Virus record (IMG/VR): IMGVR_UViG_2740892229_000011
DNA length: 64,000 bases
Source: a virus
Lineage: Duplodnaviria; Heunggongvirae; Uroviricota; Caudoviricetes
Direction: 5' to 3' (one strand)
Below, in pieces: positions 11,618 through 45,253 of the stretch (its first letter is position 1; every line of letters starts with the position of its first letter). A program made the position numbers and the translations under genes. Below the pieces are notes generated by a model. It was not told where the DNA came from, made no database searches, and saw nothing but the letters and a program-made list of their open reading frames with translations.

Positions 11618-11829
11618 TCGTATTAAGTAAAAGGGAGAAAGAAACGCTTCATGAAATCAGTAAGTGGCCGGAGTTCCCTGAGTACTGGAAGCCTAAAACG
11701 CGAGCTAAGTTAGAGCGTTTAGGGTTGGTTGCAAACGTTTCTGAAACGTGGTGCTCGGCCAACTACCAGTTAACTGATAAAGGGAAAGTATTGCTACAGC
11801 AATTAGTAGAATCAGGAGCGTTAAAATGA
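11614..11829 (+). CDS. hypothetical small protein
   Basis: ATGA start/stop overlap with the ligase gene; SD GGAG. Confidence 0.4.
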   Translation: MIVLSKREKETLHEISKWPEFPEYWKPKTRAKLERLGLVANVSETWCSANYQLTDKGKVLLQQLVESGALK

Positions 11830-11974
11830 TTCCATACATCTCATTAGCTTTTATGGGTGGCTTCCTTATTGGCTTCGGCATCTGTCGTGATTTAATTAAG
11901 CAGGAACTTAAAACCAAAACACTGTGCATCGGAAAGCGTGTGTATCGGGTAGTTCATGAAACAAAGGTTAGAAA

Positions 11975-12265: not shown

Positions 12266-12655
12266 AAACACAATGATAAGTATTTACTTACTTATCTTTT
12301 ATGTATAAGATGACTTTGTTTTCGTTGAGACGCGACTGTTTGAACTTAAATACAAGTGCAAACGAAGAAGTCTATCTGGCAGTAGCCTAATAAGCCAAAC
12401 ACCAGCGAGGTCAGTTTCCAGCCTCGTTACCGAAATGGGACACACTGAGCGAGTGTGATTGCAGAACGCAGGAGGGAACATTCATGTTCCCTCCGATGAA
12501 GTAACAGAATGGGCGGTTGGTATATTTTCAACTCCATATGACTCCCGGATTCTTAGCCACTGACCGCCCATCCTGTTACGTCATTTTGTTCAATTATGTC
12601 GTTTATACTGGGTTAAAAAGCGGCGACGTAGCCCGGCTGGTATGGTTAGCCAGCA

Positions 12656-12777
12656 CACAACGTTGAGGCCATTACATTTTTATCAATTCTAAGGTTCTAT
12701 TCACAGAGATACCGGCGAGCGTTGATATGTAACATGTTGGGCAAACATTCAATCGGAGTAGTGGCCTCAACGTTGTG
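12656..12777 (+). repeat. Long inverted-repeat hairpin element E1 (CACAAC..GTTGTG termini)
   Basis: 16-nt arms cacaacgttgaggcca / tggcctcaacgttgtg enclosing about 90 nt. Confidence 0.5.
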
Positions 12778-13043
12778 AAGACAGGATTGTTGTGTAGGTT
12801 TAACCACTGTTGCCATTGGTGCCTGTTTTCACAACAAATGATTCCATACATCACATTGTATAAATTACAAAGTAGGTGCTGTCCTCAGAAACATCATCTA
12901 CTTAAAGATTTTGCCTTCTACTATTGAGCGAAGTCGAAAGCGTCTGGCACTAACGAAAAGTGCAAGTAGCGGTGCGTTTCCTGGCAGAAACTAAACCGTC
13001 GCGATTGGCACTGTTGAGTAATAAATACTGGCAGTGCTGAATT

Positions 13044-13118
13044 GATGGTGTAGCTCAGCGGTAGAGCAGTTGGCTGTTAACCAACTGGTCGGTGGTTCGA
13101 ATCCACCCACCATCGCCA
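13044..13118 (+). tRNA. tRNA-Asn (anticodon GTT)
   Basis: Cloverleaf read by hand: acceptor gatggtg/caccatc, anticodon loop ctGTTaa, T-loop GGTTCGAATCC, 3' CCA encoded; differs from the recalled E. coli tRNA-Asn. Confidence 0.85.
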
Positions 13119-13123
13119 ATTTA

Positions 13124-13210
13124 GGGGAGTTAGTCCGTAGGGGCAGCGGGGTAGACTGTAAATCTACTGTCATTGCGACTCGGGTGGTTCGACTCCATCA
13201 CTCCCCACCA
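13124..13210 (+). tRNA. tRNA-Tyr (anticodon GTA), type II with long variable arm
   Basis: Acceptor ggggagt/actcccc, anticodon stem gtaga/tctac with loop ctGTAaa, long variable arm, T-loop ttcgact, CCA encoded. Confidence 0.7.
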
Positions 13211-13214
13211 AATT

Positions 13215-13290
13215 GCCGGTTTAGCTCAGTTGGTAGAGCGCCTGCCTTGTAAGCAGGATGTCAGCGGTTCGATCCCGTTAACCGGCACCA
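13215..13290 (+). tRNA. tRNA-Thr (anticodon TGT)
   Basis: Acceptor gccggtt/aaccggc, D-arm tagctcagttggtagagc, anticodon loop ctTGTaa, T-loop ttcgatc, CCA encoded; 4-nt spacer from tRNA-Tyr. Confidence 0.8.
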
Positions 13291-13291
13291 A

Positions 13292-13380
13292 CACAACAGG
13301 TAAGAGCATTGGGCGAATCGGCGATACTGACCCACAAGCCCGTAAATCGATAGAGTCAGACCAGTGCTCTTACCGTTGTG
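13292..13380 (+). repeat. Long inverted-repeat hairpin element E2
   Basis: Arms cacaacaggtaagagca / tgctcttaccgttgtg enclosing about 56 nt, directly after tRNA-Thr. Confidence 0.5.
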
Positions 13381-13426
13381 AGGAAGTGCAGCTCTTTGAA
13401 GCAACCAGAAGATAAGCATCTGGCTT

Positions 13427-13510
13427 CACAACACAACGATAAGATCATTACGGTTAATCGTCGTTCATGTGCACAATGACTGGTCGAAAGGTAGTGATCT
13501 TACCGTTGTG
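13427..13510 (+). repeat. Long inverted-repeat hairpin element E3
   Basis: Arms cacaacgataagatca / tgatcttaccgttgtg; the 3' arm is near-identical to that of E2. Confidence 0.5.
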
Positions 13511-13610
13511 ATGAATGCACAGGCTGATGTGCCGCAACTACAGTAGTGCGCGCTTTGCGGGGCTTGCTACAACCCTGTGTCGGAGTTCAGCACCGACCAT
13601 CACAATAGCT

Positions 13611-13697
13611 GGAGAGTAGGGAGCATGGTGCTCAAGCGGTCTTGAAATCCGTCCCATTGTGCAAACGATGATGGTTCGATTCCATTACTCTCCGCCA
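13611..13697 (+). tRNA. tRNA-like element, type II (possible tRNA-Ser, anticodon TGA) with weak anticodon stem
   Basis: Acceptor ggagagt/actctcc, T-arm gatggTTCGATTccatt, CCA encoded, loop cTTGAaa; the anticodon stem is only 4 bp plus a U-U, so function is uncertain. Confidence 0.4.
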
Positions 13698-13699
13698 GA

Positions 13700-13777
13700 C
13701 ACAGCGTTGAGCGGTTTGGCCTTTTAATCACCCAGATTAAGACTCCGCTAACATAAACCAGACCGCTCAACGCTGTG
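13700..13777 (+). repeat. Long inverted-repeat hairpin element E4
   Basis: Perfect 16-bp arms cacagcgttgagcggt / accgctcaacgctgtg enclosing about 46 nt. Confidence 0.5.
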
Positions 13778-13918
13778 ATAGACAATTACGGCAGACGTTC
13801 TTAACCATAGCTTGCTAACATCCTAGCAACACTTTTTTTCAGCGCAAAATTCAAAGGGGCTTCGGCCCCTTTTTTGCAACTGAAAGAGTCAAGTCTACGA
13901 ACTTTGTAGGAAGAAATA

Positions 13919-14511: not shown

Positions 14512-14675
14512 TTTTAACGGCTCACAGGAGCCGTTTTTATTCCCACCAAACTCACTCCCATTTCCCTTAAAATTCAAAAAACAACGTCAAAATGATTCCA
14601 TACCTACTATGTATGGAATCATTGCTGAAAATGAGTTACTTTTACTCTTGATCCTATAAGAATCTATGCCTAATA

Positions 14676-14721: not shown

Positions 14722-15825
14722 ATGAAAAATAGCTTTGACAGAGCACGCGCTGCGGAGAACACCTCAAAAGAGGCGATAGAGTATCTCGAAAGAGCATCTC
14801 AAATGCAGGCCGTTATGATCTCCCAGGTCAGCAATGACATGAGATTCTCGGACGCATTCATGTTATTCACTCGCTTATCTCTGCTGATAACCAGACGTCG
14901 GCCAGAGATCGCTGTTCATTGTATTTTGATACATGTTTTGCCGCACATTGCCGATGTAAAAGTAAGTGACATTAATAGGTTCATGGTGAACCAACTGGTC
15001 AACCCACTAATACTGGATGGCAAAATTGTTATGGGCCGCCGCGTTTTCTCTCTGATGAAGCAGTTCCTTAGCTGGTGCGCCTTCCAGGGGATGATAGACG
15101 TGTCACCGTTAAACGATATGTCACTTAACAAAGTTGCCGGTGGCGCAAAGCCCACACCTCGCGAGCGGAAGCTGACCGACGCAGAGGTATGGGTGTTCTG
15201 GAATATATGGGACTACTTCAATGTGTGTGCTGGTACAAAATGGGCGGCCAGGCTATGTCTTGTATCCGCAAGACGACCTGACGAAGTACTGCGGGCTAAA
15301 AAAAGTGAGTTCAATCTTAAGCGTGGGGTTTGGAATCAAGGCAAGAGGAACAAATCTGCCCGTGAGCATTCTCTGCCTTTAAGCTCATTAATGCGCACTT
15401 GTATTGAAGAGTTGTTCGAATATGGTAAAGACAGCCAGTGGCTCGTGCCTTCGAATAAAAAAATCGGGAAAGACCTTCCTATGTCTAAAGTGGCAATAGC
15501 CCAGGCATTACGTCGTATTCTGGAACGACCAGAACTGATGGAGCTTGAGCCATTTACACCCCGAGATTTGCGCCGTACTGCGCGTAGTTACTTCCCAGCA
15601 TTAGGCATAAGCCAGGAGGTATCACGTAAAATCATGAACCACAGTCTTGAGGGGATAGATCGGGTCTACGACCGGCACGATTATATGGACGAGATGCGAG
15701 ACGCCTTAGAAAGTTTCTCGACGTACATCGCATCAATCGTAGAGCAACCGGATTTAGACGAAATTGACCACAAATTTAAGGGAGATCGTCTATCAACAGA
15801 GCTTATTCGTGTAAATTTTTCATAG
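14722..15825 (+). CDS. tyrosine site-specific recombinase / integrase (P4-like family)
   Basis: C-terminal catalytic region FTPRDLRRTARSYF ... KIMNHS ... RVYDRHDY (R, RxxR, H and Y positions of tyrosine recombinases; the usual H of the HxxR box is R here). Confidence 0.7.
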   Translation: MKNSFDRARAAENTSKEAIEYLERASQMQAVMISQVSNDMRFSDAFMLFTRLSLLITRRRPEIAVHCILIHVLPHIADVKVSDINRFMVNQLVNPLILDGKIVMGRRVFSLMKQFLSWCAFQGMIDVSPLNDMSLNKVAGGAKPTPRERKLTDAEVWVFWNIWDYFNVCAGTKWAARLCLVSARRPDEVLRAKKSEFNLKRGVWNQGKRNKSAREHSLPLSSLMRTCIEELFEYGKDSQWLVPSNKKIGKDLPMSKVAIAQALRRILERPELMELEPFTPRDLRRTARSYFPALGISQEVSRKIMNHSLEGIDRVYDRHDYMDEMRDALESFSTYIASIVEQPDLDEIDHKFKGDRLSTELIRVNFS

Positions 15826-20388: not shown

Positions 20389-23300
20389 ATGAAGGCACTG
20401 ATGGTTCGAACTGACTTCTCACTTGGGGAGTCGGCTTTAAAAGCAGAAAACGCGGTGAAGATTGCCAGAGAAGCTGGCTACACCGCTGTAATTTCAGCAG
20501 ATAGCATGAATATTGCGAGTGTTATTCCACTACAACGTGCCGCTGGTGACGACATGGCGGTTATTTGTGGTGTGAAACTAAATATCGTTGATGATCCCAC
20601 ATACGAGCACCGGGCTAAACTTGCTAAAGAATCTAAGGGATGTATGGAATCATTAGAGCGAGGACGTAACTACTCGTTTACCGCTCTAATTAAAAATGAG
20701 AAAGGATATCGCGACATCTGCGAACTAATGACGGCGGCCAACACACGAGAACAGTTCTACTTTGTACCGCGTCTCTCGCTCGAACAGTTGGTTTCTACAT
20801 ATGCCAAAGGCAACATCATCCTGCTTACTTCCGACATCGGTAGCGTGTTCCAACGCAACGATTTTGCAAAAATCATAAGCACACTGATTACAGCGGGTGG
20901 AAAAGACAACTTCTATAGTGTGGTTTATCCGCACCCTACCCCATTCTACGACCAGATTAACGTCCGGGCGATGAAAGTCGCCAGCGCATTGAAAATAGAG
21001 CCAGTGGCGTTCTATCCCGCTTATTACGAATCGATCGACGATGCAGACATTAAAGACATTGCGCACATGGTTACGAACAACATCAAAATCGACCAGCCGC
21101 ATCGTCTGCGTATCCCCCACCAGCGAGATAACGCCGTCAATGGTCGCCGCCATCTCCTTGAGGCGCTTAAAGCCTTCTCCGTTCGCATGGATGTGCCGGT
21201 AACAGCTGCAATGGCCTCAACAACGCAGGATACCATTATCGATGCCTGCACATGGCGCTGGCATGAATTGCCGCCAGCACTGCCAAAGATGGCAGACGAC
21301 GAGCCTGCAACGCTTATGAAACTGGCTGTTGCAGGGCTGCGTAAACGTCTTACCACAAAAGAGTTTGGCTACACACCACCTGCTTCTGAGAACAGGGTTT
21401 ATGTTGAGCGGCTAAAGTACGAAATGGACACGCTGACTCGCCTGGGATTTTGTGGTTACTTCCTGATGGTACGCGATCTGATGAATCACAGCCGTGAAAC
21501 TGGCATTCCTGTCGGGCCTGGTCGTGGTTCCTCCGCTGGCTCTTTGGTGGCATGGTGCATAGGCATAACCAACGTCGACCCTATCCGTCACGGTCTTCTG
21601 TTTGAACGTTTCATCAACCCTGAGCGTCTCGACTTGCCAGATGCGGATTTGGACTTCAGCCAGGCACGTCGCCATGAGGTGATCGAGTATCTGAATGAAC
21701 GATACGGCGAAGATTACGTTGCGGGTATTCCGAACTTCACATATCTGGGCGCAGCCTCTGCACTACGTGACACCGCTCGTATTTATGGTGTGGAGTCCGC
21801 AGATATGGCGGTATCAAAAGAGCTGAGGAACGTCGAGGATGATAGCCTTCCATTGGAAGAGCTGCGCGAACAACTGGCAAGTCTCGACAAATACGCGACA
21901 AAATACCCTGATGCATTCAATGCTGCCTGCAAGTTACAAAGTCTTATGCGTGGCTTTGGTAGACATGCGGCAGGGATGATCGTAGCAGGTGTTCCTCTGA
22001 CAGAACGTACACCGGTTGAACGCCGTGGTGACGCGCGTTGTATCGCATTTGACAAGCGTTACTGCGAGGCTATGGGCCTAATTAAGCTGGACGTACTTGG
22101 TCTGGCAACTCTCGATTTGCTCGATAGTGCAAAACGCTACATAAAAGAGAACACAGGTGAAGATATCAATCTTGATGCCATTTCTCTTGAAGATCGCAAG
22201 GTGCTGGATGGTTTTGCTGCTGGGTACACTCAAGGTGTTTTCCAGCTTGAATCAGGCCCAATGCGCAAGCTGCTTAAAGATTTAGGTGGTGGAATTGAGC
22301 CAATGAGCTTTAAAACGGTCGTTGCTACGACTGCGCTCTTCCGGCCGGGGCCAATTCAGTCAGGCATGTTGGATGATTATGTTTCTGTCGCCAAAGGCTT
22401 TATGACGCCGGAATCATTACACCCCGTTCTTGATGAACTTACCGCAGAAACAAATGGCGTGATTCTCTATCAGGAACAGACGATGAACGCGACTCGATTG
22501 CTTGCCGGCTTCACAATGGCTGAAGCTGACGGTGTTCGTAAAGCGATCGGCAAAAAAGACATGGAGAAAATGAAGAGCATGGGTGAGAAGTTCATCGTTC
22601 AGGCTCAAGCTGGCTGGATCGACGTTGAGCTGGAAGATGGCACTACACAGCGCATTCACCGTGCGGAACATTTTAAATGCGAAGACGGAACTCTGAAAAC
22701 TGTCGAAGAGGCACTTGAGTTCGGTGCAAAACTACCTATAAACGCAGTACGCGTTACAGCGTCACATCCAGGGCTATCAGAGATGAAAGCGAAGGAGATC
22801 TGGACCGCATTCGAAAAGAATGGTGCCTACCAGTTCAACAAATCACACTCTGTTGCTTACTCCTTAATCAGTTATCAATCTATGTGGTTGAAAACTCATT
22901 ATCCCGCAGAGTTTTTCGCTGCTGCTCTCACTATTCTTGGCGAAGATAAACACCAGGGGCTGGTTAAAGATGCGCTGACCTATGGTATTCGCGTATTGCC
23001 ACCAGACGTTAACGTGTCATCTAACCGAATCGAGATCCGCACGCTTGAAGATGGCAGCCAGGTGCTGTATGCGCCCTTCTCTGCTGTGAAGGGGTGTTCT
23101 GAGAATGGCTGCCAGGCCATCATGAGAGCGCGAGAAAAGGTTGGCGGCAAATTCGAGTCACTTGCGCAATTCGAAGAAGCTGTCGAGAAACGTGCCTGTA
23201 ATAGTCGAGTGCGCGAATCGCTGCAAAAAGTAGGGGCGTTTGCATCCATCGAGCCAGGTAGTCTGCCAGCAACTGATCCAGAGCGCCTCCGCGACCAGGC

Positions 23301-44149: not shown

Positions 44150-45253
44150 GTGTCACTCCTTTTGAATCGTGAGCATACGAACGGTCAGGTAACAAACGCA
44201 TCGTATGCAAAAGTTATTGAGACGGTGCTTAAAAGCGGCGTGCAGGCTGATGATCGCACAGGCACTGGTACTTTAAGCACCTGCTACGTTCCCTCTTACT
44301 ACATGCTTACTGGTGGGACTGTGCCGCTTATTTCTGGAAAGGCGGTAAATCTTAAGCCACTGCTTGTCGAACTTGAGTGGTATCTGAAAGGCACGGGCAA
44401 CATCCAATTTCTCAAGGATAACGGCGTTAAGATTTGGGATGCATGGGCCGATGAGAATGGCGATTTGGGGCCGGTTTACGGTAAGCAGTGGCGTCGATGG
44501 GAAGATACCCGCATCGTGAGCCATAGTGAATATCTGAGCAAGATCGATACTTTCCGTGAACGCGGGTACAAAGTCGAGGGATACCTGGGTATCAGTGAAG
44601 ATCGCGTAGTGCTGTCCCGTGAAATCGATCAGCTACAGCGTATTGTCGATACACTGCGCACGAACCCTACCGATCGTCGCATCATGCTTAACGCATGGAA
44701 CGTAGGCGAGCTTGAGGATATGAAACTGCCACCTTGCCACTTTGTCTTCTCTTTGTGGAGTCGTGAGCTGGATTTTGAAACCCGTTTAACGATGGCAACT
44801 GACATTGGTCTTCAACACAGTCGCCTCGGTTACGAGTCTATCTACACCAAGATGCTATACGATCTGGAGATGGACGGCAGTGTTACTGAAGCTGAACTGG
44901 ATGAACTTGGAATCCCCAAACGCATCCTCAACTCCTGCCTCGTACAGCGTAGCGTAGACACTTTTGTTGGTATGCCATTCAATATTGCTGGCTATGGCAT
45001 TCTCACTCATTTTCTCGCGAAGATTACGGGTCACATGGCCGGTGCATTTGTGCATTTTGGCTTTGACGTGCATTTGTACAACAACCACATGGAAGGTGTG
45101 TGTGAGCTAATGAAACGACAAGCTCCAGAGCATTCAGATCCGGTCGTTATTTTCCCTCATGAATGGTCAGAGTTGGATGATTTCAAATGGGACGAGATTT
45201 TAATTCTTGGCTATGACCCTCTACCGTGGATCAAGGTTCCAGTGGCGGTGTGA
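44150..45253 (+). CDS. thyA: Thymidylate synthase (ThyA family) with two insertions
   Basis: DRTGTGT, WADENGDLGPVYGKQWR, catalytic PPCH, QRSVDTFVGMPFNIAGY, HLYNNH; insertions of about 35 and 60 aa relative to E. coli ThyA; start set at GTG with SD GAGG (track start 44123). Confidence 0.8.
   Translation: MSLLLNREHTNGQVTNASYAKVIETVLKSGVQADDRTGTGTLSTCYVPSYYMLTGGTVPLISGKAVNLKPLLVELEWYLKGTGNIQFLKDNGVKIWDAWADENGDLGPVYGKQWRRWEDTRIVSHSEYLSKIDTFRERGYKVEGYLGISEDRVVLSREIDQLQRIVDTLRTNPTDRRIMLNAWNVGELEDMKLPPCHFVFSLWSRELDFETRLTMATDIGLQHSRLGYESIYTKMLYDLEMDGSVTEAELDELGIPKRILNSCLVQRSVDTFVGMPFNIAGYGILTHFLAKITGHMAGAFVHFGFDVHLYNNHMEGVCELMKRQAPEHSDPVVIFPHEWSELDDFKWDEILILGYDPLPWIKVPVAV

Follow-up and report, generated by a model that had tools for sequence, protein, structure and literature searches.

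The tRNA region of a 64,000-nt virus sequence, IMG/VR record IMGVR_UViG_2740892229_000011 (the whole stretch is referred to as the window), was analyzed at positions 12,266–13,918. Four long hairpins, designated E1–E4, are interleaved there with transfer RNA (tRNA) genes. They belong to one family of ~20-bp stems, which enclose differing interiors and are spread over unrelated phages. In our interpretation, which we give about an even chance of being correct, the hairpins are RNase III-type processing stems, separating the tRNAs and freeing the enclosed RNAs. Transcription of the hairpins and tRNAs as one precursor, proposed earlier in a first-pass annotation of the window, is very likely because the elements share the strand of the tRNAs and are bounded by the upstream genes on one side and a terminator on the other.

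The four hairpins and their family

All four hairpins are on the + strand. E1 (12656–12777) has 20-nt arms at 12656–12675 and 12758–12777, 95% complementary according to the repeat finder; its 20-bp stem encloses an 82-nt interior and lies 266 nt upstream of tRNA-Asn. The arms of E2 (13292–13380), detected by the finder at 13299–13312 and 13361–13374, extend by eye to 13292–13312 and 13361–13380 and form a 20-bp stem with one bulged A (position 7, after the sixth pair) around a 48-nt interior. E2 starts 1 nt past the CCA end of tRNA-Thr. E3 has a covariance-model core at 13432–13510 and finder arms of 23 nt at 13429–13451 and 13491–13513 (87%), so that the pairing is extendable to 13429–13513; its 20-bp stem contains one A.C mismatch and one U.G wobble and encloses 39 nt. 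The stem of E4 (13700–13777; 20-nt arms 13700–13719 and 13758–13777, 95% complementary by the finder) consists of 20 uninterrupted pairs with the termini CACAGC/GCTGTG and starts 2 nt past the CCA of tRNA-Ser.

Direct reading identified the four stems as variants of one sequence. Their 5' arms are CACAAC-G-TTGAGGCCATTAC (E1), CACAAC-A-GGTAAGAGCATTGG (E2), CACAAC-G-ATAAGATCATTAC (E3), and CACAGC-G-TTGAGCGGTTTGG (E4). A U.G wobble occurs in each of them at the fourth pair from the top and pairs on the + strand only. The first-pass annotation had placed all four elements at these coordinates or within 5 nt of them (the core of E3 begins at 13432, not 13427) and had rightly pointed to two near-identical 3' arms, which are those of E2 and E3 (repeat families D2 and D3). 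Its arms of 14–17 bp were too short, since the repeat finder and folding both give stems of about 20 bp; the loops, proposed to be 45–90 nt, measure 38–82 nt.

Fold z-scores were −6.5 for E1, −5.8 for E2, −4.3 for E3, and −11.1 for E4, and 0 of 200 shuffles folded equally well. When the entire 1.46-kb region was folded, all four hairpins were present in both the minimum-energy and the centroid structure. A terminus-anchored finder detected four hairpins of at least 19 pairs in the window, all inside 1.1 kb, versus 0–1 in each of 30 dinucleotide shuffles (mean ~0.13). A covariance model of the stem, with E2 absent from its training types, returned exactly E1–E4 from the window (E-values 3.5e-11 to 3e-10). 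Scores on the + and − strands were 44.7 and 38.3 bits for E1, 43.3 and 32.3 bits for E2, and 44.1 and 35.8 bits for E3, respectively; E4 scored 46.4 bits. The window copies of the family are restricted to the tRNA region.

Several simpler identities were rejected. E1–E4 are not intrinsic terminators: the stems are followed by purine-rich AAGA, AGGA, ATGA, and ATAG without T runs, and the consensus terminator scan lists none of the four. Nor are they tRNAs or tRNA pseudogenes, ARAGORN and Rfam calling four true tRNAs only. Searches of Rfam at gathering and permissive thresholds yielded no matching family; the elements match only chance-level look-alikes of microRNA precursors. Protein coding as the source of the region was rejected as well, in agreement with the earlier statement that no open reading frame (ORF) accounts for the elements: the ORFs overlapping the hairpins are at most 80 amino acids long, and none matches Pfam or PHROG families. 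The tRNA and hairpin region thus comprises 1.6 kb without a supported ORF.

Two exact-pattern scans of IMG/VR produced about 180 phage and prophage loci, in which a scripted finder identified 490 family copies representing 109 distinct sequences and ~25 types. Members were found in P1, P7-like and D6-like phages, SSU5, Cyrano, Klebsiella SSU5-like phages, many prophages of Enterobacterales, and phage lambda; in E. coli genomes, the copies are located in phage-plasmids and prophages.

Covariation was counted on arms-only alignments, with bulged and unbulged stems treated apart because a gapless MAFFT alignment of all stems shifts the bulged types. In 38 unbulged stems, 95.1% of the cells were paired (34–52% with the 3' partners slid), and in 18 bulged stems, 94.4% (34–57%), values inflated by ascertainment, as the finder chose hairpins of at least 17 pairs. 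Changes on both sides were observed at 15 of 20 pairs in the unbulged stems and at 9 of 20 in the bulged ones, with covariation scores of 0.599 vs. 0.201 for shuffles and 0.277 vs. 0.135, respectively. The compensatory changes between types are real despite the selection. Among the E1 orthologues of SSU5, Cyrano, and Klebsiella phages, the stem is likewise kept by compensatory changes; the E4 orthologues have such changes at two pairs.

The termini covary too: CGCAAC/GTTGTG is present in L007 and the cluster-C12 variants, CGCAAC/ATTGCG in D6, CATAAT/ATTGTG in L017, and CACAAA/TTTGTG in the lambdoid prophage L186. The motif CACAAC/GTTGTG is therefore a preference and not an invariant. The distinct conserved terminal motif of the first-pass annotation stands as the common motif of one family; it does not stand as a fixed sequence or as a peculiarity of the window, being found also in P1, P7, D6, SSU5, prophages, and lambda. 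When the 109 variants were oriented by adjacent tRNAs, 187 G.U vs. 25 A.C were counted on the tRNA strand, and the unbulged-stem covariance model scored the + strand 4.9–11 bits above the − strand for every copy, lambda included. The G.U excess and the higher + strand scores indicate that the helix is selected on the tRNA strand, which agrees with a function as RNA; single-stranded DNA of the tRNA strand, folded in the same way, would be a formal but less likely alternative.

No description of these hairpins was found in Rfam, RefSeq features, or the literature searched. What appears to be new is the family itself, together with its tight association with the 3' ends of tRNAs, the conserved arms around swappable interiors, and the spread over unrelated phages. 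Processing stems cut by RNase III have long been known from phage transcripts.

Across the family, the interiors measure 7–77 nt, and those of different types are unrelated; the loops of C10 and C17 are just 7–9 nt. Unrelated interiors and such tiny loops indicate that what the family has in common is the stem. For the E1 and E4 types, no consensus structure of the interior emerged. The E4 interior carries the motif AAGACTCCGC, common to orthologous types, and E1-type interiors have CACAGAG and AATCGG in common. T-arm-like hairpins occur inside some relatives (GGGTTCGAATCCC in D6 and P1, GAGTTCGACTCTC in L005).

The interior of E2 (13313–13360) is a conserved structured core of ~48 nt, GAATCGGCGATACTGACCCACAAGCCCGTAAATCGATAGAGTCAGA. 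It is ~85% conserved in a lambdoid prophage (L186 4022–4069), lies just 5' of tRNA-Asn within a 7-bp GACACCG/CGGTGTC helix in a Klebsiella SSU5-like phage, and just 3' of tRNA-Thr within the closing helix ATTAAAC/GTTTAAT in the T5-like Pectobacterium phage My1. The T5-like phage DU_PP_V also has it; the copies outside the lambdoid prophage are those at L271 891–948, L270 1485–1546, and L272 292–352. The closing helix differs each time and measures 6–20 bp. The inner 5-bp stem of the core shows compensatory changes; the core alignment is gappy and lacks clean covariation overall. The E2 core is a candidate for a new small-RNA motif. Thus, the earlier description of the interiors as unrelated holds for most of them and fails for E2, whose core has been retained in phages of the lambdoid, Klebsiella SSU5-like, and T5-like Pectobacterium groups.

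A total of 188 of the 490 copies, in 9 of the 25 types, start at −5 to +3 nt relative to the CCA end of a tRNA: 115 at tRNA-Thr, 43 at tRNA-Ser, 29 at tRNA-Asn, and 1 at tRNA-His. All 31 E4-type copies directly follow tRNA-Ser (31/31), and E3-type copies in related plasmids are directly 3' of tRNA-Thr. In type C11, the CA of CCA forms the first stem pair; in type C30, the 3' boundary is flush with the 5' end of tRNA-Arg. Copies away from a tRNA usually have a small covarying stem-loop and 'CA' just 5', resembling the ...AACCGGCACCA end of tRNA-Thr. In the window, such a stem-loop, GCTGG-TATGGTTAG-CCAGC (12636–12654, +; recognized from the sequence, the global fold, and the flanks), stands directly 5' of the A-CACAAC of E1, and equivalent covarying small hairpins precede family members not abutting a tRNA in other genera. 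The tRNA adjacency and this pattern suggest an ancestral unit 'tRNA + hairpin' that was tandemly duplicated, with later decay of some tRNAs.

Array architectures differ by whole units among close relatives. Cyrano lacks tRNA-Tyr, E2, and E3; other plasmids carry E3-type or different hairpins directly 3' of tRNA-Thr; and P1-like arrays have gained or lost a unit consisting of a hairpin and a 128-nt spacer. The hybrid type C26 combines an E2-type stem with a C2-type interior. In the IMG/VR contig L057 (7638–7749), an E1-type interior is inverted in place between unchanged arms (85% in reverse orientation), and the flanks are collinear with SSU5; recombination between the inverted arms or an assembly artefact may explain it. 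The evidence that the arms take part in recombination is observational. Such recombination is probably a side effect, yet it clearly shapes the arrays.

The P1 annotation places two antisense ORFs, plp ('putative lipoprotein') and upl, over hairpins and spacers (L003 1575–2144, − strand). P1-like relatives differ across plp/upl by 196-nt unit indels, not a multiple of 3; since these break the frame, plp and upl are probably not real genes. Both were non-essential in a CRISPR interference (CRISPRi) screen (PMC10695390). Directly downstream of the hairpin arrays of D6 (L002 2266–2386) and P1 (L003 2183–2302), upstream of tciA, there are sub-threshold matches to Rfam STnc100 (39.6 and 33.4 bits, respectively; cut-off 47). 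This match is absent from the window.

BLAST of E2–E3 against E. coli genomes showed that a lambdoid prophage carries a diverged copy of E2, located between its genes for the Q antiterminator and the holin; the prophage sequence downstream of this copy matches phage lambda. In lambda itself, a family member (CACAACAGGTAAGAGCATTGAG...CCAGTGCTCTTTCCGTTGTG) is located 7 nt past the tR' U-tract at 44,787–44,862 (L188 639–714); the leader that extends from tR' to gene S forms no other long duplex. The covariance model scored it 28.1 bits (E = 8.6e-6), higher on the + strand, and gave the prophage L186 32.9 bits. A scan of species-representative genomes, partly swamped by chance matches and contigs identical to lambda, found the lambda-type stem in ~20 genera of Enterobacterales. 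The stems of these genera have all retained the bulged A, a U.U mismatch, and the U.G wobble around interiors that are completely different; the conserved irregularities suggest recognition by a specific protein. The family ties the lambda late leader to phage tRNA arrays, a link that points to the lambda hairpin as the remnant of a tRNA cassette. RNase III sites in the lambda late leader were reportedly mapped in vivo by Daniels, Subbarao, Blattner, and Lozeron (Virology 167:568, 1988), and we take these sites to lie within the 44,787–44,862 hairpin. The lambda member was probably characterized in 1988. Their paper is cited, by reference and title, in PMC7547250.

A second conserved non-coding block (...GAATGCCGGAAGCAGAACCGGATCACCAAATGCGTACAGGCGTCATCGCCGCCCAGC...) was noted 3' of the lambda hairpin (L188 716–800, lambda ~44,864–44,948). 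It is the interior of the D6 hairpin after tRNA-Ser (L002 2180–2255), and it follows tRNA-Ser in rV5-like tRNA arrays (L187 2497–2570, phage slur16); another copy is at L186 4092–4178. A pseudo-tRNA identity of this block in lambda, D6, and the rV5-like phages was rejected, the 'tRNA' labels of the BLAST table reflecting a 2-nt overlap with the adjacent gene. A lambda-type member was also found on an Acerihabitans chromosome (L246 3168–4592), ~970 nt downstream of a CI/Cro-type helix-turn-helix repressor gene, in neither a late leader nor a tRNA array; its place near this gene shows that the family occurs in other prophage operon leaders as well. Small contigs carrying a segment 100% identical to the lambda hairpin were also encountered in about 22 species-representative assemblies from unrelated bacteria (Pseudomonas, Psychrobacter, Algoriphagus, Bradyrhizobium, Kitasatospora, Paenibacillus, and others); several of them bear a label of ~1x coverage. 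These contigs (L192, L193, L204, L206, L209, L219, L220, L223, L224, L229, L230, L233, L243, L245, L248, L251, L252, L260, and L267–L269) are most likely lambda DNA contamination of the assemblies.

Proposed processing of the transcript and competing explanations

The first-pass annotation had left the choice among small RNAs, processing sites, and recombination sites; processing fits best. In the proposed mechanism, one long non-coding RNA would hold the tRNAs and the four hairpins, each with a stem of about two helical turns (~20 bp) closing off a variable interior. The double-strand-specific RNase III of the host would cleave both strands of the stem, parting the upstream tRNA from the downstream RNA and also liberating the enclosed RNA as a separate small molecule. 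A short trailer would be left for 3' exonucleases to trim back to the CCA; trimming after the cut has a parallel in lambda sib, which opens int mRNA to decay. With a stem beginning 1–2 nt past the CCA, RNase E, the usual route, would find no single-stranded trailer, and a helix adjoining the CCA would block 3' exonucleases, so a cut by a duplex endonuclease would be the simplest route of maturation.

The stems agree with the geometry of RNase III substrates in having 20 bp with at most one bulge or mismatch plus wobbles, and they are co-oriented with the tRNAs. The lambda homologue lies in a leader for which RNase III processing was reported. The idealized E. coli RNase III substrate has 22 bp, and in many cellular substrates the helix does not exceed ~20 bp (PMC3867540). 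The double cuts of the enzyme in vivo are a median of 58 nt apart along the RNA (PMC6212723); loops of 38–82 nt put the strand-to-strand distances within the in vivo range around 58 nt.

Several points weigh against RNase III processing. The assignment to this enzyme is drawn from helix length and context alone. The arm sequence is conserved across genera, which RNase III does not require; another factor or gene conversion could be responsible. Many copies do not abut a tRNA (E1, E3, and the P1 types C1, C2, and C3), and the percentages of paired positions are inflated by the choice of well-paired hairpins described above. The consensus scan gave no sigma-70 consensus promoter for the tRNA/hairpin operon. 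The P1 region with the hairpins was non-essential in the CRISPRi screen (PMC10695390), so any role is dispensable for plaque formation under laboratory conditions.

If the hairpins are RNase III sites, tRNA maturation in the model phage P1 and in the very common phage-plasmids of E. coli, Klebsiella, and Salmonella would depart from the RNase E pathway of the host, ~1.5 kb of 'empty' sequence in hundreds of sequenced plasmids would gain an annotation, and the P1 ORFs plp and upl would probably be artefacts. The family is a ready candidate for a new Rfam family and a simple system to study how phages assemble and shuffle arrays of small-RNA genes.

The enclosed RNA might itself be the functional product. 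Stable small RNAs, whose ends would result from RNase P, RNase E, and trimming, could use the long stem as a protective closing helix shielding the interior (a regulator, decoy, or tRNA mimic) from exonucleases. This is possible, though we consider it unlikely. It would account for the recurrence of the E2 core beside tRNA-Thr and tRNA-Asn within closing helices of quite different sequence and length, for the motif AAGACTCCGC of E4-type and the shared CACAGAG and AATCGG of E1-type interiors, and for the T-arm-like hairpins of D6, P1, and L005. However, the E1 and E4 types lack a consensus interior structure, interiors shrink to 7–9 nt in C10 and C17, one E1 interior is inverted in place, and Rfam has no match; moreover, a perfect 20-bp duplex is an expected RNase III target unless antideterminants are present (PMC3867540). 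Another candidate identity is that of Y-RNA-like (YrlA-like) tRNA mimics, whose long terminal stem would bind a Ro60/Rsr-type protein. A size of 80–125 nt, a large interior under a long stem pairing the 5' and 3' ends, T-arm-like hairpins in a few relatives, and GTCGAAAG in E3, which fits the published GNCGAAN0-1G motif (PMC4201824), recall these RNAs. The motif in E3, however, is on the 3' side of the interior and not on the 5' stem strand, and is short enough for chance; the window elements have neither a D-arm nor a T-arm; the Rfam YrlA model matches none of the elements even at E-values up to 10; its sole weak match in P1/D6 (25.6 bits) overlaps true tRNAs; and no TROVE/Ro60 or RtcB gene was found in 46 kb of the annotated identical plasmid. 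With the model, motif, and Ro60 tests failed, this identity is largely refuted and very improbable.

A role at the DNA level would mean that the elements are either miniature mobile elements or joints where recombination shuffles cassettes of tRNAs and small RNAs, the hairpin being a by-product of terminal inverted repeats or a folded single-stranded DNA like integron attC. The modular architectures speak for it: hairpin-and-spacer units are gained, lost, and swapped among close relatives, hybrids such as C26 exist, the L057 interior is inverted between its arms, and the same modules are present in unrelated P1-like, SSU5-like, lambdoid, and T5-like phages. The stem base ...AAC/GTT... is that of attC core sites, a tyrosine recombinase gene is ~950 bp downstream, and folded single-stranded DNA also tolerates G.T pairs. 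Against it, the flanks have no target-site duplications or direct repeats, and the copies are not dispersed, being confined to the tRNA region in the window and to tRNA arrays or operon leaders elsewhere. Their orientation always agrees with transcription. The recombinase (14722–15825) matches a generic integrase domain only (33.9 bits, cut-off 434) and not the integron integrase model, the P1 and lambda copies have no adjacent integrase, and the continuous 20-bp helix lacks the unpaired central spacer of attC. The indel boundaries examined fall in long shared spacers or short CACAA repeats, as in ordinary homologous recombination. This reading therefore seems quite improbable. The specific identities of an integron attC site (generic integrase, continuous helix) and of a miniature inverted-repeat transposable element (no target-site duplication, all window copies within 1.1 kb) were rejected.

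Processing might also be combined with exchange. The stem would then be a portable 'cassette holder' that builds tRNAs and arbitrary small RNAs into self-processing arrays, exchanged among unrelated P1-like, SSU5-like, lambdoid, and T5-like phages by recombination in the shared arms. The small RNAs held inside would have functions of their own, for instance as regulators or anti-defence decoys; one candidate is the E2 core, found in company with tRNA-Thr or tRNA-Asn from T5-like to lambdoid phages. We regard this broader proposal as rather unlikely; if true, it would describe an integron-resembling system for RNA genes, driven by homologous recombination.

The tRNA operon and its surroundings

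The stretch 12300–13900 was 100% identical to several ~110-kb E. coli plasmids and 96–98% identical to 'Escherichia phage CMS-2020a' and phage Cyrano; portions of it match SSU5, Klebsiella SSU5-like phages, P1, P7, and D6. Judged by the identity to E. coli plasmids and the SSU5 and Cyrano matches, the source replicon is an SSU5-like phage-plasmid of E. coli. In an identical plasmid annotated in RefSeq, the tRNAs are preceded by DNA ligase and small ORFs and followed by a Gp49-family gene, a glutaredoxin gene, and the tyrosine recombinase gene; the inter-tRNA intervals carry no annotated feature there.

Genes for tRNA-Asn (13044–13118), tRNA-Tyr (13124–13210), and tRNA-Thr (13215–13290) were identified on the + strand by ARAGORN, the Rfam tRNA model, and RefSeq of the identical plasmid. 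The fourth gene, tRNA-Ser (UGA) (13611–13697, +), was called by ARAGORN and is annotated as tRNA-Ser in RefSeq. The Rfam general tRNA model has no listed match for it; its best match within the Rfam clan is tRNA-Sec at 41 bits, below the threshold of 47. The D6 record bears a similar remark.

A hairpin resembling an intrinsic terminator, AAAGGGGC-TTCG-GCCCCTTT followed by more T, was recognized at 13853–13875 (+) by sequence reading and folding; it reads GGGGC-TTCG-GCCCC-T6 and probably ends the tRNA and hairpin transcript. The terminator consensus scan omitted it, probably because flanking A and T runs lengthen the stem.

The 12-mer ATGATTCCATAC has five copies in the window vs. 0.33 expected: 11826–11837, 12838–12849, and 14592–14603 (+) and 14611–14622 and 20642–20653 (−). 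Two copies make a perfect palindrome immediately upstream of the recombinase gene, and one, followed by TGTATAAAT, lies between E1 and tRNA-Asn. The 12-mer looks like a phage operator or promoter motif and may mark where the tRNA transcript starts. The first ~190 nt of the non-coding region (12270–12460) are 80% conserved with SSU5. They gave only chance-level matches to transfer-messenger RNA models. In the equivalent place, the leader of the P1 ban operon has an annotated 'dicF-like region'; no DicF match was found in 12270–12460 of the window.

Three further hairpins mentioned in the first-pass annotation are real. The perfect 11-bp palindrome (GGAGGGAACAT/ATGTTCCCTCC) is at 12471–12481 and 12484–12494 (+; repeat finder, global fold). 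The hairpin expected at about 12510–12585 has 22-nt arms (GTAACAGAATGGGCGG.../...CCGCCCATCCTGTTAC) at 12496–12517 and 12563–12584 (+; repeat finder). It occupies the spot where P1 has a family-type hairpin (CACAACAGGTAAGGGCGCTGG...) and was grouped in cluster C1; by position and partial sequence similarity only, it may be a diverged relative of the family, and the stem covariance model does not recover it. The hairpin proposed for about 12785–12845 lies around 12772–12838; it is closed by the reversed-order hexamers ATTGTTGTG...CACAACAAT at 12786–12838 (+; repeat finder, global fold), and an alternative pairing, 12772–12785 with 12822–12835, would employ the 3' arm of E1. Its equivalents in SSU5 and Klebsiella phages retain the pairing with a different sequence.

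Two spacers on the + strand were delimited from the sequence and the global fold. Spacer A, between E2 and E3 (13381–13431), contains a small hairpin, CCAGA-AGATAAGCA-TCTGG (13405–13423), and has GTTGTGAGGAAG and CTTCACAAC at its flanks; in P1-like arrays it is also present 3' of hairpins of several types. Spacer B, which separates E3 from tRNA-Ser (13511–13610), is also found in P1 and D6 and forms two small hairpins, GCACA-GGCTGA-TGTGC (13517–13532) and GTCGG-N9-CCGAC (13579–13597), the latter followed by CATCACAAT.

Comparison with known systems

The closest counterpart is the hairpin of the lambda late leader, which has a homologous stem (CACAACAGGTAAGAGCATT.../...AGTGCTCTTTCCGTTGTG) with the bulged A and the U.G wobble and is likewise an untranslated part of a long phage transcript. 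Unlike E2 and E4, it does not abut a tRNA but is 3' of a terminator and followed by a conserved non-coding block. The T7 R1.1-type hairpins, the flanking stems of 16S and 23S rRNA, and lambda sib are also helices of about two turns in polycistronic transcripts. Cutting of such classical RNase III stems sets functional RNAs apart from one another or gives 3' exonucleases a point of entry (PMC3867540; PMC6212723). The window family differs from such stems in being multi-copy, with conserved arms and interchangeable interiors; many of its copies start 1–2 nt past a tRNA CCA, and its cleavage is a prediction.

The tRNA cluster of phage T4 encodes stable non-tRNA RNAs, 'species 1 and 2' (rnaC and rnaD). 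The comparison with them, drawn by the first-pass annotation, comes down to context, namely structured non-tRNA RNAs within a phage tRNA operon, and Rfam gave no match. YrlA and other Y RNAs (RF02553) share the long terminal stem formed by the 5' and 3' ends, and a few relatives of the window elements have tRNA-like arms; the window elements, by contrast, are not accompanied by a Ro60 gene, do not match the model, and lack a conserved Ro-binding motif in their stems.

Integron attC sites are imperfect hairpins after each cassette with an AAC/GTT base, a variable center, and occasional extrahelical bases. The hairpins of the window differ from them in that ACACAAC and GTTGTGA each deviate from RYYYAAC and GTTRRRY, the helix is continuous, no integron integrase is present, and no fixed G|TT breakpoints were seen. 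The Correia elements of Neisseria are transcribed miniature elements with inverted repeats, cut by RNase III when transcribed. They resemble the present family as units of ~80–150 bp whose terminal inverted repeats (~20–26 bp) form RNA hairpins, whereas the window family has neither target-site duplication nor genome dispersal and is confined to phage tRNA arrays and operon leaders. In layout only, the family is analogous to the TMER of murine gammaherpesvirus 68, RNA polymerase III transcripts of a eukaryotic virus that enter the Dicer pathway: there, too, a tRNA-like unit is followed by a hairpin that is freed by tRNA-end processing and cut by a member of the RNase III family.

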